From NCBI GenBank assembly GCA_963753285.1, contig CAVWBT010000001.1, forward strand, positions 115,194 through 179,193: a stretch of 64,000 nucleotides of DNA. The letters are read 5' to 3'. The notes under the pieces were generated by a model, which saw only the letters and a program-made list of their open reading frames with translations, ran no database searches and had not been told where the DNA came from. Numbering within the stretch: position 1 is the stretch's first letter; the number at the start of each line of letters is the position of its first letter. The position numbers were made by a program, and so were the translations under genes. This DNA is from an uncultured bacterium. GTDB taxonomy: Bacteria > Actinomycetota > Acidimicrobiia > Spongiisociales > ZC4RG35. Of this stretch, positions 941 through 51,158 are shown one piece after another.

Positions 941-1057
941 TCATGGAAGACAGACAGCGTCGGAAGAGCGCTACGAATCGAGTCGCGGAGATCCTGTGGA
1001 TCATCTCTCTGGTCGTGACCGCGCTGGTAGCTGTCTACCTCTTGTTGGCTGCTTGAT
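941..1057 (+). CDS. Tiny single-TM peptide (38 aa), family B copy 1 (..RVAEILWIISLVVTALVAVYLLLAA)
   Basis: Hand translation, not in the ORF track. aaaggga RBS 6 nt upstream of the ATG. Locally lower GC. C-terminal hydrophobic helix similar to the 2277-2390 and 46174-46305 peptides. Confidence 0.35.
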
Positions 1058-1079: not shown

Positions 1080-1241
1080 ATGGCGAACCTACCATCACCA
1101 CTCGACCTCGCAGTGATGCACCTGCGCCTGTTCTACGAATGGCTGGCGGAGAAGGGCATAGACCCCAAAGGCCTCAGCCAAGAGGAGTCGGTCAAGCTGG
1201 ATGCTGAGTTCACGCAGCACCTGATAGACGACTACGGGTGA
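1080..1241 (+). CDS. Small hypothetical protein (53 aa)
   Basis: Hand translation MANLPSPLDLAVMHLRLFYEWLAEKGIDPKGLSQEESVKLDAEFTQHLIDDYG. aaggaaa RBS. Lower GC than surroundings. Confidence 0.3.
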   Translation: MANLPSPLDLAVMHLRLFYEWLAEKGIDPKGLSQEESVKLDAEFTQHLIDDYG

Positions 1242-2501: not shown

Positions 2502-3641
2502 ATGGCCGGACCGCCAGCCGATAGCGACACGCCTGATCGAGCCGACCTCTGCAACTACGGCTCGCTCGGAGTGCTCAACACCCGACCGGACGGACTCCAG
2601 TGCCACATCTGCGGTGAATGGTGGACGAGCCTGGCCGCCCACACTCAACGCACCCATGGCCTCTCCGCTGACGAGTACCGGGCGACGTTCGGGCTGATGA
2701 AAAAGACGAAGCTGGTTGCACCCGTCGTCAGGGAGGCTCAGTCCAAGAGGGCCACCGAACACCTTCGTCGGATTGGCGGTCCTCACCGTGAGACCGTGAA
2801 GACGCTTTCGACCGACGAGCGGCGCCAAAGGGCTCTGAAGGCTGAGCGGCGAGAAGAACACGAACTCAACTCGCCGGCACCGGAGCGGGCGAACCCGATG
2901 CTCGAAGCCCGATTCGGCCCCACCAAGCGTGTCCCAGATGACGTTCTCCAGGACGCCGTCAACGTATTCGTCGAGGAGCTGCCAGAGCGCTCCAGGGGAG
3001 TCTGGGTGCGCACCGGCGGGCGGTTGGGTGTCGAGTGGTCGACGGCCCGGATGCTCGTCTACACGGCGGCTGACAGGGGCATGATCGAACTCTCCGGGAC
3101 ACGCACCGACCTCACTGCCCGCCACCATGACGGCACCGAGATCGTCCCGCCCGATTCGTTCCCGGGTCGTCTCGCCACCCTGCAGAGGTATTCGGAGGCG
3201 ACGGGGTCGGCGGCGGTGCCTCGATCTGCCGTGTTCGAGGACGTGGCGATCGGGAAGTGGGTCGAGTCGGTGAAGAACCGATGGCGCAACGGCACTCTCA
3301 ACGACGAACAGAAGGAGGTGCTCGAAGTGCTGCCGGGATGGCGGTGGCCGGAGTCGGGACCGTACTCCGGCGGGTCGGTTCCCCCGTCGGACTCGGAGGT
3401 CGGCGTGAACGTGGCGATGTGGAACTCAGCCTTCGAGCGGCTGGGGCAGTTCGTCGAGGAGCACGGGCATGCCCGAGTTCCGGCTCGACATCGAGACGAC
3501 GACGGGTTCACGCTCGGAACATGGGTCGGAGCGCAGCGGTGGAAGCACAGGGACAGCGAGCTACATGGTGTTCTGGTTCAGCGCCTGGAGCGACTCCCGG
3601 GTTGGGTGTGGTCACCGCCGATTGGAGGACCTCACGAGTAG
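2502..3641 (+). CDS. MucR/Ros-type C2H2 zinc-finger fused to two helicase-associated (HA) domain repeats
   Basis: N-terminus LQCHICGEWWTSLAAHTQRTHGLSADEYRATFGL resembles the Ros/MucR zinc finger. C-terminal repeats W..FERLGQFVEEHGHARVP..H..DGFTLGTWV..QR match the HA-domain pattern. Confidence 0.55.
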   Translation: MAGPPADSDTPDRADLCNYGSLGVLNTRPDGLQCHICGEWWTSLAAHTQRTHGLSADEYRATFGLMKKTKLVAPVVREAQSKRATEHLRRIGGPHRETVKTLSTDERRQRALKAERREEHELNSPAPERANPMLEARFGPTKRVPDDVLQDAVNVFVEELPERSRGVWVRTGGRLGVEWSTARMLVYTAADRGMIELSGTRTDLTARHHDGTEIVPPDSFPGRLATLQRYSEATGSAAVPRSAVFEDVAIGKWVESVKNRWRNGTLNDEQKEVLEVLPGWRWPESGPYSGGSVPPSDSEVGVNVAMWNSAFERLGQFVEEHGHARVPARHRDDDGFTLGTWVGAQRWKHRDSELHGVLVQRLERLPGWVWSPPIGGPHE

Positions 3642-4924: not shown

Positions 4925-5569
4925 CTAAATGCCGACGTCCCACTCCCGCCGCTGCATGGCGTCCACCACATCCTTCGGGGCCAGATGCGACAGGTACCGG
5001 TCCGTGGTCGCCAGTGAGGCATGCCCGAGTTGCCGTTGGATCACCGGCACCGGCACACCCTCCATCATTAACTCAAACGCCATCGTGTGCCGGAGGCCGT
5101 GAGGGTGGACCCGCTTCTCGATCCCGACCTTCCCGGCGAGCCGGGGCAGCAGCGTTCGCACATACGACGGCTTCAACGGCTTGCCCTTCAAGGTGCAGAA
5201 CAGAGGTGCCCGAGCAGACACCCCTAGCTCTTTCCGTCGGTCAACCCAACGCTGGACGATCGCCATCGCCCCGGGATCGAACCCGACCGTTCGACGGCGG
5301 TCACCCTTCCCATGGAGCACGGTGATGGTCGCCTGCCCGGCGTCGATGTCCTTGGGTTTGAGGGCGAGCGCCTCGCCGAGTCGAAGACCACCCCGGTAGA
5401 GGACGGTGATCAAGGCCCGGTTCCTGATGCCGGTCGGGGCCGTGTTCGAGCAGGCCCGGATCATCGACTTGACCTCATCGGGGGTGAGCACCTCGGCTGG
5501 GTAGGTCTGCCCTTTGTTGGGTGCGGTGCGGCCAGCGTGGTAACCGGGCTGGATGACTGGTGAATTCAT
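4925..5569 (-). CDS. Tyrosine recombinase / phage-type integrase, short catalytic-domain-only form
   Basis: Catalytic motifs HGLRHTMAFELMMEG..LGHASLATTDRYLSH (R..H..R/H..Y). Only 214 aa, no N-terminal SAM-like domain. Confidence 0.8.
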   Translation of the reverse strand: MNSPVIQPGYHAGRTAPNKGQTYPAEVLTPDEVKSMIRACSNTAPTGIRNRALITVLYRGGLRLGEALALKPKDIDAGQATITVLHGKGDRRRTVGFDPGAMAIVQRWVDRRKELGVSARAPLFCTLKGKPLKPSYVRTLLPRLAGKVGIEKRVHPHGLRHTMAFELMMEGVPVPVIQRQLGHASLATTDRYLSHLAPKDVVDAMQRREWDVGI

Positions 5570-7555: not shown

Positions 7556-7744
7556 TCAGTCCAGGACACCCCGCTCGGATACACCCGCGAACCTCGCACC
7601 CATTCCCGTCACCTCTAACGAGTGGGACATCACCATCCCCCAGACGCGCAGGCCGGCCAGCACGTCGGGATCGATTTCGACGGCATCGACCGATGCAGTC
7701 GTGAGTGCCTTCAGGACGTTGAGGTGAGGTTCGGGTAGCTCCAT
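7556..7744 (-). CDS. Small conserved hypothetical protein (62 aa), family A copy 2
   Basis: MELPEPHLNVLKAL..LRVWGMVMSHSLEVTGMGARFAGVSERGVLD, paralog of the 678-866 protein. Confidence 0.45.
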   Translation of the reverse strand: MELPEPHLNVLKALTTASVDAVEIDPDVLAGLRVWGMVMSHSLEVTGMGARFAGVSERGVLD

Positions 7745-7766
7745 CGATGGAACATACGAGGCGGGT

Positions 7767-8114
7767 GTGACACGCCTTCGTGGCAACATGACACCCATGC
7801 CGACTTCGCGCAGCGTCGAGTCCTGCGACCGACCCCACAAGGCCAATGGCTACTGCACACCCCACTACTACCGGGTTCGCCGCCACGGCGACCCGCAGGC
7901 GCACATCCCGATCGGGAAGGCCAAGCTCAAGGACCAGCAGCGGTGTGAAGTGAAGGCGTGCGACCGGAAGGCGATCGCCCGCGGGATGTGCGATGCCCAC
8001 TACCGGCGATGGCGCAAGGGTGATGGCAGACCCGAGGTTCCCATCGGTCGTCATGCTGCCGCTCCTTCGATTATCACGGTGGAACCGGTGGCTTGTTCGA
8101 TCGGGGGGCTGTGA
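7767..8114 (+). CDS. CxxC..HY zinc-ribbon repeat protein (two motif copies)
   Basis: CDRPHKANGYCTPHYYRVRRHGDP and CDRKAIARGMCDAHYRRWRKGDG. Divergent from the family A copy 2 gene. May be one frameshifted gene together with 8053-8550. Confidence 0.45.
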   Translation: MTRLRGNMTPMPTSRSVESCDRPHKANGYCTPHYYRVRRHGDPQAHIPIGKAKLKDQQRCEVKACDRKAIARGMCDAHYRRWRKGDGRPEVPIGRHAAAPSIITVEPVACSIGGL

Positions 8115-8911: not shown

Positions 8912-9301
8912 TCACCAGATGTGTGACTCCGAGAGAGTTGAAGGTGGTCGAGGTTCCAACAGCGATGGGAAGAACGCCCCCTCACGCACCTTCGGGATCC
9001 TGAGTTCCACATCGCCTGCCGGCGTCGACAACACCCTGGGGCGGGCGCCATCGCGTTGGTTGGTTCTCGTGTCGGTTCGTTCGTGCGGTTTGGCGCCGAT
9101 CGCCGCCGACAACTCGACGTCGATCAACTCCTGCAACGCTTTCTGGACCAGATCCCGGAACAGAAACCTGACATCATCACCACCAAGCTCTGTGACGAGC
9201 TCAGCCAATCGGGCATCATGGCTCTCGGCCATCGTGCATCTCCTCTCGAGTCCACGGTCAATGAACTCGCTGAGAGTTGCACGGTGGCCCCACCGCGTCA
9301 C
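8912..9301 (-). pseudogene. IS256-family (Mutator-type) transposase N-terminal fragment (~129 of ~400 aa)
   Basis: LSAAIGAKPHERTDTRTNQRDGARPRVLSTPAGDVELRIPKVREGAFFPSLLEPR matches the conserved IS256 transposase N-terminus. The gene is truncated. Confidence 0.6.
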
Positions 9302-11557: not shown

Positions 11558-12055
11558 GTGACGCAGGAGAGGGTTCGCCAGGCGGCAGATGTTGAGAGCT
11601 TCACTGTGTTTGTGAAGAGGTATCAACCGATGCTGCGTAACGCCCTGATCGCAGTAGTGGGACCCGATCTTGCGGGGGACGCGGTGGATGAGGCATTGCT
11701 GTATTGCTGGCAGCGGTGGGATCAGTTTCGCGTTGTGGAGAATCCAGCCGGGTATCTGTGGTCGGTGGGGCGCAGCAAAGGTCGGGATCTAGTGCGCCAA
11801 CGCCGTCGTGGGGAGCGGGTGCGGCCGTTGTTACCGGTGGTTCCGTCGGCGAGTCCGCCGCTAGTCGAGCCTGGATTACCCGTGGCGATGATGCGCCTGC
11901 CGGAACGGCAACGGGTCGCTGTGTTTTTGATTCACGGGTATGGCTGGACTCACGCGGAGGTCGCCGGATTCCTTGGCCTCTCGGTACCGACGGTTCAGAA
12001 GCACGCTGATCGTGGGCTAGCCAAGCTGCGGCGGGGGCTAGGAGCGCGACCATGA
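11558..12055 (+). CDS. ECF-subfamily RNA polymerase sigma-70 factor
   Basis: Sigma region 2 and region 4 features (..LLYCWQRWDQF.., ..GYGWTHAEVAGFLGLSVPTVQKHADRGLAKLR). Confidence 0.7.
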   Translation: MTQERVRQAADVESFTVFVKRYQPMLRNALIAVVGPDLAGDAVDEALLYCWQRWDQFRVVENPAGYLWSVGRSKGRDLVRQRRRGERVRPLLPVVPSASPPLVEPGLPVAMMRLPERQRVAVFLIHGYGWTHAEVAGFLGLSVPTVQKHADRGLAKLRRGLGARP

Positions 12056-14283
12056 CGACCGACATAGCTGAGCAGGTCCGGGAGTACGCAGAGTATGTGG
12101 ATTCGATCGTCCCGGACTGGACTGTTGAGGGCGTCCTCACCAGTCCGGTCGCGGAGCCACAGTCTGAGGGTCCTCGACGCCGCTGGTATTCCACTTCGCA
12201 GCGAGGGGTCCTCGCTGCTTTGGGCGCGGCCATCGTTGTCCTGGTGGTCGTAACCACTCCCACAAGCCTGACCACCACCCTGCCCGATGGTCCCACCACC
12301 GTGAGGCAGTCCATCCCCTGGTACGGGCAGACCAACGTCCTTGACGTGGAGGTTGGAGCCGATGGGAGTCTCTGGGCGACTCTGGGCGACGGGGTAGTGC
12401 GCTGGACACCGGGTTCCGAGATTCCAGAGGTGTATATGAACCGGGAGACGCCAAATGTGGAGGCGTACCGTATCACCGTGGCACCGGATGGCGACGTGTG
12501 GGTGGGGAGCATGTGGCAAATGGCACGCTTCGATGGCTCGTGGACGACGTTCGGACCCCGCGATCCCGACGACGCTCTCATGCGAGTCCTGGAGCAGGAC
12601 GGACCCGAGGACCCGATTGCGGTGGACAACGACGGCGTGGTGTGGAGTGCCATGGGTAGGCACTACCTGGGCCGCCTCGACGGCTGGGAATACGAGTTCT
12701 TCAGTGCTCCAGTTCAGGACTCCTTCGGAGACCTTATGGGTTGGGCGACGTCGATCGACGTCGCCCCTGATGGAACGGTGTGGGTCGGCTCGGCCTGGTC
12801 CAACGCGGTGTTTGCCTTCGATGGTACCGACTGGACTACCTACACCGCGGCCGATGGTCTTCCCGGTGGGGTCGGATGGATTGTGGCGGTGGCGCCGGAT
12901 GGAACGGTGTGGGCGGGGGCGGGTGCCGACATCCCCGGCTCCGGTCGCATCGCCGCGACGATGGGCGTGGCCCGCTTCGATGGGTCGGAGTGGATGGTGT
13001 ATACGACAGCTGACGGGCTTCTCTCCAACGACGCTGCGGTTGAAATCGGCCCCGACGGAACCGTGTGGGCCATACAAGCGTCCGGTGTGTCCCACTTCGA
13101 GGACAACACATGGGTCTCGTACCCCGATGCGCCTGGGCTCGGTTTCCGAGCTGCAGTCGATGCCTCGGGCACATTGTGGAGGCCGGACACCGATGGACTG
13201 GTCGGTTTTGATGGCACCAATATCACCCGACACGTGCTTCCGATCGACGAGCCACCCACCTCGCCCATTCCCCCATCGGGAGCTTGGGACCCGATCCTGT
13301 CAACCACGTCGGCCAAGACGGCTCCGCCCGCAGCGACCTGCCCGGCCGGAACCGATCCGGCTGCTCCCGGTCCGGTCGATCAGGAACGCCCCGACCCACG
13401 CTGGGTTACCAACGTCGCCGCGGCTTTCGATCGGCATACCGGCCGAATCGTCTATGTCGACGTCCGCGGCGCGACATGGACGTTCGATGTGTGCACCAAC
13501 ACCTGGGAGTTCATGAATCCCGAGGGAGCGCCGTACGCCGATCGTTCGGACCTATTGGACGCGCGCGGCCAGGGATCCGGAGTGCTCGGCGATCTCGTAT
13601 ATGACGCCGATTCCGACCGGACCATCGCGTTCGGCAGTGTCCTGGCGGTCTACGATGCCAACACCAACACGTGGACCCAACCCCGCCCCGACCCAGCCAA
13701 CCTTGCAACGGGACGGGGGCCAGCCGTATACGACCCGGTCACCGGGTTGATCATCACGACCGGTGACGAGGGACTCTTGGCCTATGACGTCGACACCAAC
13801 ACCTGGACGGTGATCGGTCCCATCATTCACGAGGATCTCCTTGTCGGTGACTTCCTCGGGTACTCACCGGAGATCGATCGACTCATCTTCGTCCAGCCCG
13901 ACCACACGCGGCTGATCGATCCTCGCACGGGCGAATCGACGTTGGTCGTGACCGACAGCCCCTACATCAATCTGGTATGGCCCTCAGAGGTCCACGGATC
14001 GGCTGCGGACACTGTTTACGTAACCCAACATTGGGACGGCGACCTCATCAACTTCCGCATATGCGGCTTCGACACCGTCAACCTGGCCTGGACCTCATGT
14101 GTCGACGTCCCAGAGGACGTGGAAGGCCAACACTACGTGTTCTCAGCCATGGTTGGTGACCCGATCAACAACCGACTCGTCCTGATCAACGGCGGGTGGG
14201 GTAACTCCATCGACGACGTCTGGTCCGTCGACCTCGACACCGGGGAGTGGATCCAACTCGTCGCAGCGAGCAGAGGGGGATGA
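12052..14283 (+). CDS. Membrane anti-sigma-like protein with extracytoplasmic beta-propeller (two-component-regulator-propeller-like) and Kelch-like repeats
   Basis: ATGA overlap with the sigma factor gene. One TM segment. Repeated DG(S/T)(L/V)W..G motifs. Confidence 0.5.
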   Translation: MTTDIAEQVREYAEYVDSIVPDWTVEGVLTSPVAEPQSEGPRRRWYSTSQRGVLAALGAAIVVLVVVTTPTSLTTTLPDGPTTVRQSIPWYGQTNVLDVEVGADGSLWATLGDGVVRWTPGSEIPEVYMNRETPNVEAYRITVAPDGDVWVGSMWQMARFDGSWTTFGPRDPDDALMRVLEQDGPEDPIAVDNDGVVWSAMGRHYLGRLDGWEYEFFSAPVQDSFGDLMGWATSIDVAPDGTVWVGSAWSNAVFAFDGTDWTTYTAADGLPGGVGWIVAVAPDGTVWAGAGADIPGSGRIAATMGVARFDGSEWMVYTTADGLLSNDAAVEIGPDGTVWAIQASGVSHFEDNTWVSYPDAPGLGFRAAVDASGTLWRPDTDGLVGFDGTNITRHVLPIDEPPTSPIPPSGAWDPILSTTSAKTAPPAATCPAGTDPAAPGPVDQERPDPRWVTNVAAAFDRHTGRIVYVDVRGATWTFDVCTNTWEFMNPEGAPYADRSDLLDARGQGSGVLGDLVYDADSDRTIAFGSVLAVYDANTNTWTQPRPDPANLATGRGPAVYDPVTGLIITTGDEGLLAYDVDTNTWTVIGPIIHEDLLVGDFLGYSPEIDRLIFVQPDHTRLIDPRTGESTLVVTDSPYINLVWPSEVHGSAADTVYVTQHWDGDLINFRICGFDTVNLAWTSCVDVPEDVEGQHYVFSAMVGDPINNRLVLINGGWGNSIDDVWSVDLDTGEWIQLVAASRGG

Positions 14284-17099: not shown

Positions 17100-18450
17100 A
17101 GGGGTGTTTTGGGCGCGGTGGACCGGCCCGGCGGTGCCGGGTAGTGGCGTAGGGTTAGGAGCGGCTCGGGGTGGCTGCGCTGAAGAGCCGGTGATCAGGA
17201 TGTAATCCGGTCACGCAAGCGACAGAGACGTTCCTGTTTGCCCCCCGGGCCTTATCTGGATTGGTCGGCGTTCAGCTGGCGATAGACGACGTCGGAGAGC
17301 CGGCGTTTCAACGCCCTGATGGCCTCTTTGTTGGTTTTGCCTTCTGCGAGTTTCCGCTCGTAGAACACTCGGCCCTTGGTGTCGGGTTGGCGGAGCTGGC
17401 AGATGGCGATCAGATGCAACGCATGGTTGAGCATCCGGTTGCCTTTCGGGTTGAGCCGATGCCGTTTCCTCCCACCGGAGGACGCTTCGATGGGTGCGGT
17501 CCCGTTGTAGGCGGCGTAGTGGTGTTTGGTCGGGAACCGGGTGATGTCTCCGGTGTATCCGATCAGTAGGCCGGCGACGACCGGGCCGACACCGTATATG
17601 TCGGTGAGGCCGGTGCCGGAGGCTTCCACCGCCACGGCGAGACGCTCTCGAGATGCCTTCTTCTCCTTCTCCAGGCGCCGCACTTCGGCGAGGTGTTGGT
17701 GGGCGATGCGTTTGCGTTCTGTCTCCACCATGGTCTTGGGTCGGATCCGCCGCAGCATCCGTGATGCTTTGTGAGACGAGAGCTCTCCGCTCATTCCCCC
17801 AGGTAGCAGCACCGCCAACACCGCATGCAGTCTCGACGCCGCCTGGGTCTTCAAACTGGAGAGCTGTTTGTGGCGTCCAGCGAGCATCCGGAGCACCGCA
17901 ACATGATCTTCGACGGTGACTTGCCGCAACCCGTTCTGGTGCAGTGCGACGATCGCCACCGAACGAGCATCATTGGCGTCGTTCTTCTGTGACCTCCTCG
18001 AGTCGAGGACACGAGCCCGAGAGGCCAGAGTCGAAGGCACGTCGACGACATGCTCTCCAGCAGCGACCAGCTGTTGGGCCAGCAGGTAGCCGTGGCCGTT
18101 CGCCGACTCGACCGCCCAGCGGCGTTCACCGAACCGTTCCGCCCAAGCCAACAACTCCGAGAGTTGGCGTTTACTTGCCCGGACCTCGATTTCGGCGACA
18201 GGCTGATCGTCTCCGTTCATAGCCGCAGCCGCATGAGAACCCTTGTGAGGGTCGATACCGATAACCACCGACATGATCCACCTCCAGTTCGCTCTTGGGG
18301 GTCGGTGTGAGGGTGGAGGGCACTCCTGATAAGGATCCGCGTGCTACGCCTGTTTCGAGCCACACCACCCACCAGAACCCCAGGCGGATACAGCAGCTCG
18401 TTCGAAAGCCAACCCGCAAAGGGTGGCAGGCACTTAGAGAGCCAGACCCG
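17100..18450 (-). mobile_element. IS110-family insertion sequence (approximate ends)
   Basis: Intact 340-aa transposase. IS110 elements lack terminal inverted repeats, so the ends are not defined from sequence. Confidence 0.5.
17252..18274 (-). CDS. IS110-family transposase (DEDD type)
   Basis: MSVVIGIDPHKGSHAAAAM.. N-terminus. Conserved IS110 middle and C-terminal blocks (YGVGPVVAGLLIGYTGDITRF, AIRALKRRLSDVVY). Confidence 0.85.
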   Translation of the reverse strand: MSVVIGIDPHKGSHAAAAMNGDDQPVAEIEVRASKRQLSELLAWAERFGERRWAVESANGHGYLLAQQLVAAGEHVVDVPSTLASRARVLDSRRSQKNDANDARSVAIVALHQNGLRQVTVEDHVAVLRMLAGRHKQLSSLKTQAASRLHAVLAVLLPGGMSGELSSHKASRMLRRIRPKTMVETERKRIAHQHLAEVRRLEKEKKASRERLAVAVEASGTGLTDIYGVGPVVAGLLIGYTGDITRFPTKHHYAAYNGTAPIEASSGGRKRHRLNPKGNRMLNHALHLIAICQLRQPDTKGRVFYERKLAEGKTNKEAIRALKRRLSDVVYRQLNADQSR

Positions 18451-43410: not shown

Positions 43411-43846
43411 GGCTTCACCCTACCGACGTCTCGGATCTCTTCTCGCTTCCGGCCGCGCGCACCTGAGCATCGCTGTTGAACCCCGACGGGAGGTGTCATG
43501 CCGTATCAACGAGAGGCCTGCTTCCCGCCGATGCAGCGGATCGCCTGGCTGCTGGATGCGTGGGTCTGCTCTTCGGCCCCTTCACAGGAAGATGTGCTGG
43601 TTCCGCCGTTCATCCCGTTGGTCGCTCTCGTCTGGATCGGTCACGACTGGCTCAAACGTGGACCCGTCGAGGACTGGAAGGATTCGCTGCCGCACTTCCG
43701 CCGACCGGGACAGACACCTTCGCCTCGTGATCAGCCAAGCCGACGCCATGTCCGTCTCGGAGGGCTAGTCACGTCGGGCTTCTGTGAATGGTCCTCCAGT
43801 TTTCTCGCGTGTCACGCCGATGGGAGGAAAGGCGCCGAAGAGTGGG

Positions 43847-45757
43847 ATGGCAGGAATGCGGATAGGAATCAATTGGGATCACAGGACCGGTAGACCCACG
43901 GCGATCCTCGCGATCCTCGCGATGATCTCGACGTTGTTCGCAGCCTCTGGGACCGCCGCCAGCACCGAATCCACCGGGACGATCGACGTCATCGTGCGCG
44001 AGGCGGCTCCACTCACCGATGCCGCCGAGTCCCTCGTGGAACGCCTCGGGGGCACGGTCCGTGACAATCTCGGCATCATCGGTGGATTCACCGCCACCGT
44101 CCCCGCCGACGCCATCGGGTTGCTCACCACCAGCCCCGACATCGAAGCGGCAACCCCTGACGGCACGGTCCAGTTCGCAGCGGCCGGATGGGATGATGCG
44201 ACAGCGCTCGGCGACATCGACTTCCGCAGCTACTCCGGATCGCTCTATCAGATCACCCGGACGACCAAGGCCGTCAATGCCTGGGGCAAGGGATACACCG
44301 GATACGGCGTGGACGTTGCCCTGATCGACACAGGCGTGGCTCCATTGCGATCGCTCCCGGCGTCGAGAGTCGTCAACGGGCCCGATCTCTCCTTCGAATC
44401 CCAGAACCCCGATCTCCAGTACCTGGACTCGAACGGGCACGGCACCCACCTGGCCGGCATCATCGCCGGGACCGACGTGTCGCTCGACTTCACGAGCCCG
44501 GGTGACAGCAGTGTCTTCATCGGCATGGCACCGGGCTCGCGGATCATCAGCCTCAAAGTCGGCGCCCACGACGGCTCTGTCGATGTGTCGCAGGTCATCG
44601 CCGCCATCGACTGGGTCGTGCAACATCGCAACGACCCGGGCTTCAACATCAGGGTCCTCAACCTGGCGTTCGGGACCGATGCGACCCAGTCGTATGTCCT
44701 CGACCCCCTCTCGTACGCCGTCGAGCAGGCATGGAAGAACGACATCGTCGTGGTCGTGGCTGCCGGAAACGATGGAAACCAGTCCCCGCTTCGGAACCCG
44801 GCGATCGATCCCTTCGTCATCGCAGTCGGATCCGGATTCGCCAGCGACTTCAGAGCCGACAACAACACGAGGGTCGTCTATGACTCGCTGTCGGACTTCT
44901 CCAACTGTGGGACGTCGGAGCGCGGAGTCGACATCCTGGCCCCTGGCAAATCCATCACCAGCCTCAGGACACCCGGCTCGTACGCCGACGTGAACAACCC
45001 CAAGGCGCGAGTCGGCGCCGACTACTTCCTGGGTTCGGGCACCAGCCAGGCCGCTGCGATCGTGTCCGGCGCAGCAGCGCTCATCATCGACGCATGGCCC
45101 GACATGTCTGCCGACGAGGTGAAGTACCTCCTGACGGCCAATGCCACGCCGGTCAACGGGGCCTCGGCGACCTGCCAGGGCGCCGGAATGATCGCTCTGG
45201 ACTTCCTGGCCAGCAACACCAAGAAGGCCCCGAACACCAGGGGAGCGACCCAGACGTTCGTGCCATCGGTTGGCGACGGAACCCTCGAGGACGCTCGCGG
45301 CACACATCACGTCGAGATGCAGAACGCCGAGGGAAAGAACGTCGTCCTCCGCGGCGAGCAGGACATCATGGGAAGCCCCTGGGTCGGCTTCAACACCACG
45401 ACCACCGTGTGCGCCAAGGAGGGGAAGGGCAAGAACGCCGTGATCGCCTGTACCGACGTGCTCGAACCCGTCGAGACGCTGTGGGACGGCGGCAGCTGGA
45501 ACGGTCGGAGCTGGTCGGGGACCTCGTGGTCCGGAGACACGTGGTCCGGTCTCAGCTGGTCCGGGACCTCGTGGTTCGGCTTGAGCTGGTCCGGCCTGAG
45601 CTGGTCCGGTCTGTCCTGGTCCGATCAATCCTGGTCCGGGCTGTCCTGGTCGGGTAGGTCGTGGTCGGGTAGCTCGTGGTCGGGCGCCTCGTGGTCCGGT
45701 CTGTCCTGGTCCAGCGGCGGCACCGCAATTTCCGACCAGGGTGTGCGCTGGAGCTGA
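43847..45757 (+). CDS. Secreted subtilisin-like S8 serine peptidase with I9 propeptide and C-terminal (SWSGx)n repeat tail
   Basis: Catalytic triad contexts VALIDTGV, HGTHLAGIIAG, GTSQAAAIVSGAAALI. Signal peptide. The 3' end encodes about 18 SWSGx pentapeptide repeats. Confidence 0.75.
   Translation: MAGMRIGINWDHRTGRPTAILAILAMISTLFAASGTAASTESTGTIDVIVREAAPLTDAAESLVERLGGTVRDNLGIIGGFTATVPADAIGLLTTSPDIEAATPDGTVQFAAAGWDDATALGDIDFRSYSGSLYQITRTTKAVNAWGKGYTGYGVDVALIDTGVAPLRSLPASRVVNGPDLSFESQNPDLQYLDSNGHGTHLAGIIAGTDVSLDFTSPGDSSVFIGMAPGSRIISLKVGAHDGSVDVSQVIAAIDWVVQHRNDPGFNIRVLNLAFGTDATQSYVLDPLSYAVEQAWKNDIVVVVAAGNDGNQSPLRNPAIDPFVIAVGSGFASDFRADNNTRVVYDSLSDFSNCGTSERGVDILAPGKSITSLRTPGSYADVNNPKARVGADYFLGSGTSQAAAIVSGAAALIIDAWPDMSADEVKYLLTANATPVNGASATCQGAGMIALDFLASNTKKAPNTRGATQTFVPSVGDGTLEDARGTHHVEMQNAEGKNVVLRGEQDIMGSPWVGFNTTTTVCAKEGKGKNAVIACTDVLEPVETLWDGGSWNGRSWSGTSWSGDTWSGLSWSGTSWFGLSWSGLSWSGLSWSDQSWSGLSWSGRSWSGSSWSGASWSGLSWSSGGTAISDQGVRWS
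45485..45722 (+). repeat. 15-nt tandem repeat (agctggtccggNctg)n inside the S8 protease CDS, encoding (SWSGL)n
   Basis: Read directly from the sequence. Confidence 0.7.
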
Positions 45758-46173
45758 ACTCCCCACACGAACCAGCCATTGGCCCTCGGCGCGCTCAACA
45801 GTGACGACTCCAGCCTGTCTGGCGGGTTGGTCGGATTCCCAGGACGATGGACTGGAATCAGCGCGATCGGGCCGTTTCGGCGGTTATCGGGGCCTCGAGT
45901 TGTTCGAGCACGACGATCAGCCCGTGCGTCGAGCACATGTACATGCCCCGGATCACCAGCGATGCATCGCGATCACAAGAGCTGCAGCGAATGACACGAA
46001 TGTGATTACTCATGTGTGATTCATCGGATGCGCACCTGTCGGCTTGAGGACTTCTTCGCAGGAACCCGGCAAGATGCCGCCCTGCTGAGCGATGACGACT
46101 TCGATGGAACCAGCACATGGAACGGTCCACTGCCGGCGCCGCCGCGAGTGGTCCAGCCGTGATGCTCCGTCGG

Positions 46174-46305
46174 TCAGCCAGCCAACAGGTGAACGACAGT
46201 CACGAGCCCCGCCACGGCAAGAGCGATGTCACCCAGGATCTCTGCGCGTCGATTCTCTGATTCGCCCGAATTCTGTTGGTCTTCCGTGATCTTCGTCTCT
46301 TTCAT
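46174..46305 (-). CDS. Tiny single-TM peptide (~44 aa), family B copy 3 (..RRAEILGDIALAVAGLVTVVHLLAG)
   Basis: gaggga RBS. C-terminus near-identical to the 2277-2390 peptide. Confidence 0.4.
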   Translation of the reverse strand: MKETKITEDQQNSGESENRRAEILGDIALAVAGLVTVVHLLAG

Positions 46306-46547
46306 GTCCATCCCTCTACCCGTCGGCACGACGAACGAGATCTTCAGGCCAAGCCGGACGCCGCTGGAGTGCGCGCCCCCGAACTGGATCAGGTGAGCGA
46401 GAGAGGTACGATTCCCCCCACCAGAGACATCAGTGCCGATGCTGTCGGGGTTGGATCCCGATTCGAGGCATCGGCGCTCGGTTCGGTGCGCGAGCCCCAG
46501 GACGGGACTCACGCCCACAATCGTCAATGATGACAGGCACAATCCCC

Positions 46548-46620
46548 GCCCGAGTAGCTCAGGGGATAGAGCAACTGCCTCCTAAGCAGTAGGTCGCAGG
46601 TTCGATTCCTGCCTCGGGCG
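46548..46620 (+). tRNA. tRNA-Arg (anticodon CCT)
   Basis: Cloverleaf by eye: acceptor stem GCCCGAG/CTCGGGC, D-arm AGCTCAGGGGATAGAGC, anticodon loop CTCCTAA, T-arm GCAGGTTCGATTCCTGC, discriminator G. Confidence 0.8.
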
Positions 46621-46635
46621 CAGTGCCTTTGCTGG

Positions 46636-47010
46636 CCGACTTCTGGACAAGGCCGCAACGGCTTCGGAGGGAATCACGAGTCCAGAACAGACGCCGGTCG
46701 GCCAGGGCTGCCGCACTCGACCCCCGCCTCCGATCCCGCACGCCAGACACCCGGCCGGCCGACTTCTGGACAAGGCCGCAACGGCTTCGAAGGGAATCAC
46801 GAGTCCAGAACAGACGCCGGTCGGCCACGGCTGCCGCACTCGACCCCCGCCTCCGATCCCGCACGCCAGACACCCGGCCGGCCGACTTCTGGACAAGGCC
46901 GCAACGGCTTCGAAGGGAATCACGAGTCCAGAACAGACGCCGGTCGGCCACGGCTGCCGCACCCCCGCCTCAGATCCCGCAGGCCAGAAGCCCGGCCGAC
47001 CGGCTTCTGG
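46636..47010. repeat. 123-bp tandem repeat, 3 copies plus a degenerate partial fourth, immediately 3' of tRNA-Arg; each unit has an imperfect hairpin (ggccgacttctggac...gtccagaa..ggtcggcc)
   Basis: Period measured as 46636 to 46759 to 46882 (123 nt each). Copies are more than 95% identical. Confidence 0.8.
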
Positions 47011-47096
47011 AAAGTGCCGCCCGACCGGCGAGGGAAACGATCGGACACCCCTCGACGCTCCGCTCCGTTCGATGAGCGCTCAGCCGGGAGCAGCGT

Positions 47097-49221: not shown

Positions 49222-50196
49222 TCACATGGTGAGCGCCATGACCGCTTTCTGGACGTGGAGTCGGTTCTCGGCCTGGTCGTACACGGCGCTCTGGGGACCG
49301 TCGATCACGGCATCGGTCACCTCGATGTTGCGATCGGCCGGCAGCGGATGCATGTAGATCGCGTTGGAGCCGGCCAGCGCCATCCGGTCCTCGTCGACGA
49401 TCCAGTCCTGGTAGCGGGCGCCGATCGATGCCGATTCCCCTTCGTCGGTGGTGGTGAGCATCGCCCCCCACGACTTGGCATACACCACGTCGGCGCCGCG
49501 GATGCCATCCTCGAAGCTGTCGGTCACCTCGAACGAGCCGCCCGCCGACTCGGCATTGGCTCGGGCGTGAGCAACGACCTCCGGCATGAGGTCGAACTCG
49601 GGCGGACGGGCGAGGCGGACCTGCATGCCGAATCGAGTGGCGAGCAGAATGAGGCTCTGCGGGACCGAAAGCGGCTTCTGGTAGCTGGACGCGTAGGCGT
49701 AGCTCACGTCCAGCGTGACCTCCCTGGGGTCACCCTTCTTCTCGACGATCGTCAGAAGGTCGGCGAGCGCCTGGAACGGGTGATACCGGTCGCATTGCAT
49801 GTTGAGGACCGGAACACGCGAAGCCTCGGCGACATCTCGGATGTAGGAATTCCCCATCCCCCAGTCCACCTGGCGGATGGCGATACCGTCGTTGTACCGG
49901 CCCAGGATCACGCCGATCTCCTTGGCGGTGTCGCCGTGAGCGATCTGAGTGGACTTCGACTCGATGAACTGGGCGTGCCCGCCGAGCTGGGCCATACCCG
50001 CCTCGAAGCTGGCTCGGGTGCGAGTGGATGAGAAGAAGAACAGCATGGCCAGGACCTTGTCCCGCAGCATCGGATGTGGGGTGCCCAGCGCCCGGTCCAT
50101 CTTCAGGCGTTTGGCGACCTCGAGTACGGTCTCGAGCTCTTCGACGGTCCACTCCTGGGTCGTGATCATGTCACGGCCCCGCAGTCCGGTGATCAT
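49222..50196 (-). CDS. Ornithine-carbamoyltransferase-like transcarbamylase with atypical motifs (HPLP instead of HCLP, SWG instead of SMG)
   Basis: STRTR carbamoyl-phosphate motif and HPFQ. HPLPADR and KSWGAM replace the canonical OTC motifs. ATGA overlap with the upstream gene. Confidence 0.65.
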   Translation of the reverse strand: MITGLRGRDMITTQEWTVEELETVLEVAKRLKMDRALGTPHPMLRDKVLAMLFFFSSTRTRASFEAGMAQLGGHAQFIESKSTQIAHGDTAKEIGVILGRYNDGIAIRQVDWGMGNSYIRDVAEASRVPVLNMQCDRYHPFQALADLLTIVEKKGDPREVTLDVSYAYASSYQKPLSVPQSLILLATRFGMQVRLARPPEFDLMPEVVAHARANAESAGGSFEVTDSFEDGIRGADVVYAKSWGAMLTTTDEGESASIGARYQDWIVDEDRMALAGSNAIYMHPLPADRNIEVTDAVIDGPQSAVYDQAENRLHVQKAVMALTM

Positions 50197-51158
50197 TCTG
50201 CCGCTCCCAACACGAGGGCGAGCAAGGCCATCCGCATCACGACCCCGTAGTAGGCCTCCTGCCAGTACCGAGCGTGACGAGTCGCATCCACTGTCGGGGG
50301 CAGTTCGTCCATTCGGGGCAACGAGTGGATGACGATCGCGGACGACTTCGCGTCTGCGAGCACGTCGTTGTCGACGACGTAGTTGGCCGGCGTCGCGGCC
50401 ACCTCCCCGCCGCGCTCGTCCCTGCCCTTGGTGTAGTCGGGCTGTACGACCGGCTCGATGAACACGATGTCGGCCCGGCCGATCACCTGGTTCACGTGTT
50501 CGGCCCGCTCGATGTGGAGGCCACGGCCCCGAACCTCATCGATGAGGCCGTCGTCGGGCACGTACTCGTCGGGAGTGATGTAGATCAGCTCGGTGTCGAA
50601 CTGGGTGAGCGCGTAGGCAAGCGAGTGCATCGTGCGCATTCGCCAGTCGCCCACGGCCACGAAGGTCTTGCCGTCGACACTCCCCAGTTCCCGTGTGATG
50701 GTGTACAGATCCGTGAGGACCTGGGTGGGGTGCTCGCCCCAGCCATCTCCACCGTTGATGATGGGAATGGACGCCCACCGGGCCGCCTCGTGCGGCGCAC
50801 CCTTCTGAGGGTGGCGCATCACGATCACATCCCCGTAGTACTCGAGCATCCGAACGGTGTCCTTGATGCTCTCCTGGTAGAAGTCGCCGGCCCGTGTCAT
50901 CTTCGGGTCCGCGAACCCCGTCACGACGCCACCCAATCGCAACATCGCGGATTCGTGGGCGAGCCGCGTTCTCGTCGACGCCTGGAAGAAGGCGCTCACC
51001 AGAATCTTGTCGCTCAGCAGGTCGAGTCGGCGTCGCTCGCGGGGAACCGGCTCGAACCGGTCGGCAACCGCGAAAACCTGCTCGAACTCGGCGCGTTCGA
51101 ATCCGTTCAGCGACAGAATGTCGCGCCCCGCAAAACTTCGCATGCCAGCTCCTGTCAA
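50193..51158 (-). CDS. Aspartate-carbamoyltransferase-like (PyrB-like) transcarbamylase
   Basis: FFQASTRTRLAHESAMLRLGG matches PyrB FFEASTRTRLSFE. Also HPTQ and HSLPR. Confidence 0.65.
   Translation of the reverse strand: MTGAGMRSFAGRDILSLNGFERAEFEQVFAVADRFEPVPRERRRLDLLSDKILVSAFFQASTRTRLAHESAMLRLGGVVTGFADPKMTRAGDFYQESIKDTVRMLEYYGDVIVMRHPQKGAPHEAARWASIPIINGGDGWGEHPTQVLTDLYTITRELGSVDGKTFVAVGDWRMRTMHSLAYALTQFDTELIYITPDEYVPDDGLIDEVRGRGLHIERAEHVNQVIGRADIVFIEPVVQPDYTKGRDERGGEVAATPANYVVDNDVLADAKSSAIVIHSLPRMDELPPTVDATRHARYWQEAYYGVVMRMALLALVLGAAE

Follow-up and report, generated by a model that had tools for sequence, protein, structure and literature searches.

The window examined here, a stretch of DNA of 64,000 nucleotides, carries three paralogous genes, p1, p2 and p3, that on sequence grounds belong to a family of small membrane proteins not described before. 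Judging by the databases, this family is confined to uncultured members of the Acidimicrobiia (Actinomycetota). We propose that synthesis of these small membrane proteins is turned on by an alternative sigma factor, the likeliest candidate being one of the sigma-28 family (FliA/WhiG). We put the probability of this reading at roughly 0.55.

Three homologous small genes

Three ORFs of about 40 amino acids (aa) had been predicted in the window, and all three were located. On the forward strand, p1 (943-1056) and p2 (2277-2390) each encode 37 aa, MEDRQRRKSATNRVAEILWIISLVVTALVAVYLLLAA and MEHGPQAKASQGRLAEVLANSALAVAALVTVVHLLGG, respectively; p3 lies on the reverse strand at 46174-46305, or to 46311 with an MDM start, and encodes (MD)MKETKITEDQQNSGESENRRAEILGDIALAVAGLVTVVHLLAG. 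When all stop-to-stop segments from the six reading frames of the window were searched with a profile built from the three peptides, p1, p2 and p3 were the sole matches (E values of 3e-25 to 9e-24), and a profile of 22 family members again found only these three. Across both profiles, E values at p1, p2 and p3 ranged from 1e-19 to 1e-25, while the next-best match had an E value of 0.4. The window thus contains exactly three homologous small ORFs, and the similarity between them is far above chance.

Two of the ORFs are hidden inside longer ones, as originally predicted: p2 is embedded in a 90-aa ORF that starts at TTG (2118-2390) and p3 in a 122-aa ORF (46174-46542), both of them evidently spurious. 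The plausible ribosome-binding sites claimed for each gene were also recovered, as a Shine-Dalgarno sequence within a conserved leader upstream of the ATG. Database entries already exist for some of these genes. The p1 product is identical to protein P0002, whereas P0003 is the p2 gene called from an upstream start; P0004, encoded on contig L002, is orthologue-like to p2 and 81% identical to it.

The family consensus is MEDRPNxxxSENRLAEILGxxALAIAALVTVx(Y/H)LLGx. Members are 35-38 aa long, and those in the window have 37 aa, apart from the 43-45 aa of p3 when it is read from an upstream ATG. Each begins with a polar N-terminal region of 14-16 residues, which contains a conserved (S)ENR-x-AE-I-L motif and has a net charge of -3 to +2, mostly negative. 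The C-terminal hydrophobic segment that follows spans 20-23 residues (21 in 20 of the 22 members), is uncharged in 18 of 22, and has a mean Kyte-Doolittle hydropathy of 1.9-2.9. AlphaFold2, given the family alignment, predicted one helix covering residues 6-36 with a mean pLDDT of 84. The hydrophobic helix, ALxIAALVTVx(Y/H)LLGx, reaches the C terminus of the protein; because the helix ends the protein, we regard these peptides as predicted tail-anchored, single-helix small membrane proteins.

Extent of the family and evidence for coding

We collected about 22 distinct family sequences, all of them metagenomic. An exhaustive search of 1.84 billion cluster representatives returned 18 matches, about 15 of them small homologues, and a second, word-based profile search returned 21 clusters at 90% identity; the first, word-indexed search had yielded nothing beyond the proteins of the window itself and two close variants. 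There was no significant match to the family in Pfam, NCBIfam, PHROGs, PADLOC or PDB sequences, where the best E values were at least 0.04 and involved single members, and a scan of viral contigs found no family member. Back-translated scans of genome and metagenome contigs gave false positives only. These were a transmembrane segment of a 307-aa Oryzobacter protein (L007) and two out-of-frame matches within a larger ORF (L008 and L009).

Thirteen DNA copies were available for comparison: the three in the window and those on L001-L003, L006 and L010-L015. Only one of the six frames, the proposed one, is free of stop codons in all 13. Summed column entropies at codon positions 1, 2 and 3 were 24.8, 20.6 and 38.6, so that third positions are about twice as variable as second positions. 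The median pairwise dN/dS was 0.43, a value that is noisy for sequences so short. A small family and short contigs limit the divergence available. ORF length is held at 35-38 codons, and the position of the stop codon is conserved as well. Taken together, the roughly 22 homologues, the single open frame and the third-position variation bear out the original prediction of a real small-membrane-protein family as opposed to chance ORFs. The test of frame conservation that was set alongside that prediction also favours coding, as the frame is kept and the similarity is not frame-free.

A promoter-like element and leader precede every copy

Conservation at the DNA level is not confined to the ORF. 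Conservation had been taken to coincide exactly with the coding frame; this does not hold, since an equally conserved non-coding promoter-like element and leader precede every copy, and conservation reaches about 75 nt upstream of the ORF, beyond the coding sequence. All 13 copies share the arrangement CTGAAG-N14/15-(T)GCCGA(C), followed by a GGACGGACACGAAAG leader with a Shine-Dalgarno sequence and then the ATG. The fuller layout is CTGAAG(A)(T/A), a spacer of variable sequence, (G/C)TGCCGA(C), a purine-rich block, and (A)TC-ATG. CTGAAG and TGCCGA are invariant (13/13): a T precedes GCCGA in every copy, and a C follows it in 10 of the 13. The distance between CTGAAG and GCCGA is also tightly kept, at 14 nt in 10 of the copies and 15 nt in the other 3, while the sequence of this spacer varies. 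The purine-rich block, which contains the Shine-Dalgarno sequence, starts about 9-10 nt past GCCGA, and the ATG begins 31-36 nt beyond the end of GCCGA.

In the window, the promoter-like element of p1 is at 881-907 on the forward strand, where CTGAAGAT-N-GTGCCGAC matches the pattern exactly; the predicted short leader (908-942), for which the transcription start is inferred, comprises the conserved purine-rich block and the Shine-Dalgarno sequence GGATACGAAAGGG. For p2, the element CTGAAGAT-N-GTGCCGAA lies at 2220-2246 on the same strand, followed by a predicted leader at 2247-2276 with the Shine-Dalgarno sequence GACGAAGGACGG. The element of p3 (CTGAAGAT-N-GTGCCGAC; 46322-46347, reverse strand) is kept in the syntenic orthologues on L001 and L006. 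The window has exactly three occurrences of the strict motif CTGAAGAT-N-TGCCGA, where 0.00 would be expected, and all three precede the peptides. Sites that match a relaxed version of the motif (34109, 30929, 6926, 59966 and others) occur at chance level and have no similar ORF after them.

The upstream region does not behave as coding sequence. Differences of 1 nt in the spacing of the blocks shift the frame, as seen in LKIPTTSAD in p1 versus LKISFVVPT in p3, and the upstream conservation is therefore not protein-coding. A translated N-terminal extension was ruled out, because the frame differs between copies and they share no upstream start. The region does not appear to be a structured RNA either: RNAalifold gave no consensus structure and predicted no pairs for it, and Rfam, at its gathering threshold, identified the tRNA alone in the window, while eight family loci gave no match at E values up to 1. 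Conservation ends a few bases 5' of CTGAAG on one side and at the stop codon on the other. As flanking genes vary between loci, the element therefore travels with the ORF. Each gene is, as judged from these alignments, a portable unit made up of a promoter-like element, a predicted short leader and an ORF.

Genomic surroundings of the three genes

The accessory context originally ascribed to the genes applies to p1 and p2, which lie among an integrase, transposases and a MucR-like gene, and does not apply to p3, which occupies a conserved syntenic position. Near p1 and p2 is a MucR/HA protein gene (2502-3641), and the reverse strand carries an integrase of the short tyrosine recombinase type (4925-5569), a fragment of a Mutator-family transposase (8912-9301) and an IS110-family transposase (17252-18274). 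Mobile elements are abundant throughout the first ~18 kb of the window. A 53-aa ORF (1080-1241, forward strand) begins 24 nt after the p1 stop codon with its own Shine-Dalgarno sequence and is possibly co-transcribed with p1. It is not a family member, has no Pfam match, and has no homologue beside other family members. More generally, an all-against-all comparison of neighbouring ORFs revealed no partner gene conserved across loci, except for Zn-ribbon (CxxC...CxxH) ORFs next to p1 and on L002.

There were also some observations on this end of the window that concern genes other than the family. A 62-aa ORF upstream of p1 and a 67-aa Zn-ribbon ORF downstream of it each have a diverged paralogue in inverted orientation some 7 kb away, with 74-79% complementarity (650-866 versus 7556-7772 and 1302-1400 versus 7814-7912), and the 3' end of the 62-aa ORF has a direct partial copy at 82% (717-787 versus 1541-1611). 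Further along, at 11558-14283 on the forward strand, a gene for a 165-aa sigma factor of the ECF type overlaps the start of a gene for a 743-aa Kelch-repeat protein. The two could form a sigma/anti-sigma pair with an unusual Kelch sensor domain.

At the p3 locus, the order of genes is CN-hydrolase, tRNA-Arg(CCT) divergent from p3, a 90-aa ORF and an NYN gene. The gene is syntenic in L001 and L006, where it is likewise divergent from tRNA-Arg(CCT) and neighbouring proteins are 90-96% identical. The 90-aa ORF is Cys-rich, lies 44 nt downstream of p3 on the reverse strand (45858-46130), and is possibly co-transcribed with it. It is kept beside p3 in both relatives (100% in L001 and 90% in L006). 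It matches no Pfam family and does not resemble the 67-aa ORF next to p1.

The start of p3 differs from that of its relatives. The 37-codon family core corresponds to 46174-46287, and the homologous start codon is an ACG at 46285-46287, where the orthologues in L001 and L006 have ATG. Translation from the first ATG (46311) would give a peptide of 45 aa, and from that at 46305 one of 43 aa. Members of the p3 subfamily have ACATGAAAG in place of the leader block ACACGAAAG, and the MKETKI extension of p3 arises because this ACG-to-ATG change in the leader makes an in-frame upstream ATG. Judging by its sequence, translation of p3 in the window must use an upstream ATG, near the predicted 5' end, or a non-canonical start.

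Several features around p3 and elsewhere in the window are also worth recording. The tRNA-Arg(CCT) gene is directly followed by 3.2 tandem units of 123 bp with 94% matches (46548-47020, forward strand), and the same holds in the close relative L001. In the ~200-nt spacer between the tRNA-Arg gene and the p3 promoter-like element (46348-46547), conservation between the window and L006 about equals that of coding regions; the spacer may hold the tRNA promoter or another element. A gene for a secreted subtilase (Peptidase_S8) at 43784-45757 on the forward strand has long C-terminal repeats of the (S/T)WSG type (...SWSGTSWSGDTWSGLSWSG...), and is present in L001 and absent from the otherwise syntenic L006. 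On the reverse strand, 49222-51158 encodes two adjacent OTCase-like carbamoyltransferase paralogues of 324 and 321 aa beside an amino-acid kinase gene, and homologues of the first in JGI data are named N-acetylornithine carbamoyltransferase. Actinobacterial markers in the window include Bpa, DUF3263, LytR_C and WS/DGAT.

Which sigma factor reads the element

A housekeeping promoter was considered and rejected: there is no TANNNT between GCCGA and the ATG, and a scan for sigma-70 promoters found none there. Two invariant blocks about 16 nt apart therefore fit an alternative sigma factor. Target promoters of the sigma-28 family (FliA/SigD/WhiG) in Actinomycetota have been defined in several studies (PMC12871210, PMC8325347, PMC7005675). 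The actinobacterial consensus is T(A/C)AA-N16-GCCGATAA for WhiG2 and CTCA-N16-17-GCCGAACT for WhiG1, with the central CGA best conserved and the final three positions variable (PMC12871210). For classical flagellar promoters it is TAAA / GCCGATAA (PMC8325347).

The family motif may be read as CTGA-N16/17-GCCGA or, equivalently, as TGAA-N15/16-GCCGA. Like sigma-28 promoters, it is bipartite, with an invariant GCCGA as its -10 core, including the central CGA, in all 13 copies. Its spacing, TGAA-N15 in 10 copies and N16 in 3, falls within the 15-17 nt rule, and it lies near the start codon, within 200 bp. It departs from them in the -35 block, which is TGAA and not T(A/C)AA, or CTGA and not CTCA, in 13/13 copies. 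This is one mismatch to either consensus, which falls outside the exact-match rule of PMC12871210. The bases after GCCGA also differ, being usually C-N-N instead of TAA or ACT. Because the strict, exact -35 rule fails, we call the element sigma-28-like and not a demonstrated WhiG promoter.

It is also important to consider whether such a regulator would be expected in this class. The window comes from an Acidimicrobiia MAG: its N-acetylornithine/ornithine carbamoyltransferase shares 95% identity with proteins that bear the name 'Acidimicrobiia bacterium'. RsiG, the anti-sigma factor specific to WhiG, has been reported in three of four Acidimicrobiales species (PMC8325347), and flagella and type IV pili are encoded by some sediment Acidimicrobiia (PMC12008989). 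These reports make a sigma-28 regulator plausible in the class. No sigma-28 (fliA/whiG), flagellar or pilus genes were found among the Pfam-scanned ORFs of the 64-kb window, which is part of a 761-kb contig.

Alternatively, the same protein family could be governed by a different alternative sigma factor, with an ECF factor (group 4) as the obvious candidate, in which case the peptides would be induced by envelope stress. Read as TGAAGA-N15/16-CGAC, the element shares its geometry with ECF promoters. One example of these is TGAAAC-N16-CGTA, recognized by Bacillus sigma-W, and the hallmarks of the class are an AAC core at -35 and a CGT core at -10, with the motif usually also preceding the sigma gene. 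The family element lacks both cores, showing AAG for AAC and CGA for CGT in 13/13 copies. Moreover, at 7 nt its invariant TGCCGAC exceeds the usual length of an ECF -10 element, and it contains the full sigma-28 GCCGA core. The ECF-type sigma gene at 11558-12055 (Sigma70_r2 and r4_2) is ~9 kb from p1 and p2, and the 743-aa Kelch-repeat protein encoded after it may be its anti-sigma factor. However, the motif is absent upstream of this sigma gene, and the usual signature of autoregulation is therefore absent. Weighing these points, we regard control by an ECF factor as rather unlikely, even though it comes closest to competing with a sigma-28-type factor as the reader of the element.

Toxin, regulatory and non-coding readings

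The original prediction also raised a likeness to type I toxins, small hydrophobic membrane-damaging peptides whose translation is held off by antisense RNA; the family would then be a multi-copy toxin partly carried on mobile elements. Several features would suit such a role. The peptides are small (35-38 aa, under the 60-aa criterion) and end in a hydrophobic stretch of 20-23 residues; the 64 kb contain three copies; p1 and p2 are surrounded by integrase, transposase and Zn-ribbon genes; and the loss of the p3 start codon (ATG to ACG) could reflect counter-selection. The antisense component, however, did not appear. Near the genes, scans of either strand with the sigma-70 consensus revealed neither a sigma-70-like nor any other conserved antisense promoter, and no terminator was found there; past the stop codon, nothing is conserved that could encode an antitoxin RNA. 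The 13 predicted mRNAs have no extra structure (minimum free energy z of -0.1 to +2.1 versus dinucleotide shuffles), and the Shine-Dalgarno sequence is not consistently sequestered in them.

The genes themselves also point away from a toxin. They are under purifying selection, p3 is retained in diverged relatives at one syntenic, vertically inherited site by tRNA-Arg, and neither PADLOC nor PHROGs gave a match. The polar N termini are net acidic in most members. The known type I toxin peptides Hok, TisB, Fst, Ldr and Ibs resemble the family in size, in having a single hydrophobic helix, in occurring as several copies per genome and in their sometimes mobile surroundings. The family differs from them in having acidic and not basic polar ends, an alternative-sigma-like promoter and no structured mRNA. 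Since these scans gave no antisense signals, the mRNAs lack extra structure and most N termini are acidic, the toxin-like part of the prediction is unsupported, and we consider it improbable.

Some of the small ORFs lie just ahead of a gene on the same strand, at distances of 24 nt for p1, 44 nt for p3, 111 nt for p2, 93 nt for L014 and 140 nt for L013, as would suit a regulatory leader or uORF whose translation controls the downstream gene. The downstream genes are nevertheless unrelated to one another, the next gene is convergent in L011 and L015, and no attenuator or terminator structure was found. What is conserved is the amino acid sequence of the transmembrane helix, and not just a few regulatory codons, which leaves a leader function very improbable. 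That the whole unit codes for no protein, and is a DNA or RNA repeat, either promoter cassette or small RNA, in which the open frame is incidental, is scarcely credible: the non-coding upstream part is indeed conserved as well as the ORF, but one of six frames is open in 13/13 copies, third positions vary in excess, length (35-38 codons) and stop are fixed, and neither an RNA structure nor an Rfam family was found.

Proposed role and comparison with known systems

Returning to the reading that we prefer, small membrane proteins under a sigma-28-like promoter, an alternative sigma factor, most probably FliA/WhiG, would recognize the element, and the peptides would be made only upon its release. 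What holds WhiG in Actinomycetota is the anti-sigma factor RsiG, armed by c-di-GMP. Once made, the peptide would insert in the cytoplasmic membrane, presumably with its N terminus inside. It is possible, though speculative, that there it has an accessory or modulating part in some membrane process controlled by the sigma factor, for example motility, pili or a change of lifestyle. As no neighbouring gene is conserved across loci to suggest a partner, this membrane function is a conjecture.

More tentatively, these tail-anchored, multi-copy proteins could be the dedicated output at the membrane of a switch of the WhiG/sigma-28 type in Acidimicrobiia, perhaps one under c-di-GMP control. Each gene would be tied to the sigma factor by a lineage-specific CTGAAG variant of the -35 element, and the proteins would remodel a membrane process during a motile-sessile or developmental transition. 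This fuller scheme is doubtful as a whole, but it would, if true, add a new class of targets to the WhiG regulon along with a new promoter variant. If a sigma factor of the WhiG/FliA type reads the signal, the functional diversification of this switch would extend to the Acidimicrobiia and to small membrane proteins; otherwise, we have one more lineage-restricted family of small proteins without an assigned function. Small membrane proteins are systematically overlooked in annotation, and here two of the three genes sit inside spurious ORFs. The clean promoter-plus-leader signature can also be used as a search handle for the regulon in an uncultured actinobacterial class.

Among known systems, the Flp/Tad prepilins (PF04964) share several traits with the family: they are short, with a polar leader followed by a helix rich in A, L, I and V and a Glu near the helix start. 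Pili are among the targets of WhiG in Rubrobacter (PMC8325347). Unlike prepilins, the family has neither the G/XXXXEY cleavage motif nor a Gly before the helix, and its proteins end at the helix; no match to PF04964 or any other Pfam family was obtained, even at E values up to 1-10.

The family is new, in that it has no entry in curated libraries, but its kind is familiar. The bacterial small membrane proteins AcrZ, MgtS, KdpF and CydX modulate larger membrane complexes. The family has no sequence similarity to these proteins (the best Pfam matches, KdpF included, had E values above 0.04 and involved one member), and it also differs in having its helix at the extreme C terminus, no conserved partner gene nearby and multiple copies. 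What it does share with them is a length of under 50 aa, one transmembrane helix, a condition-specific promoter of its own, here a predicted one, and the ease with which such genes are missed by gene callers.
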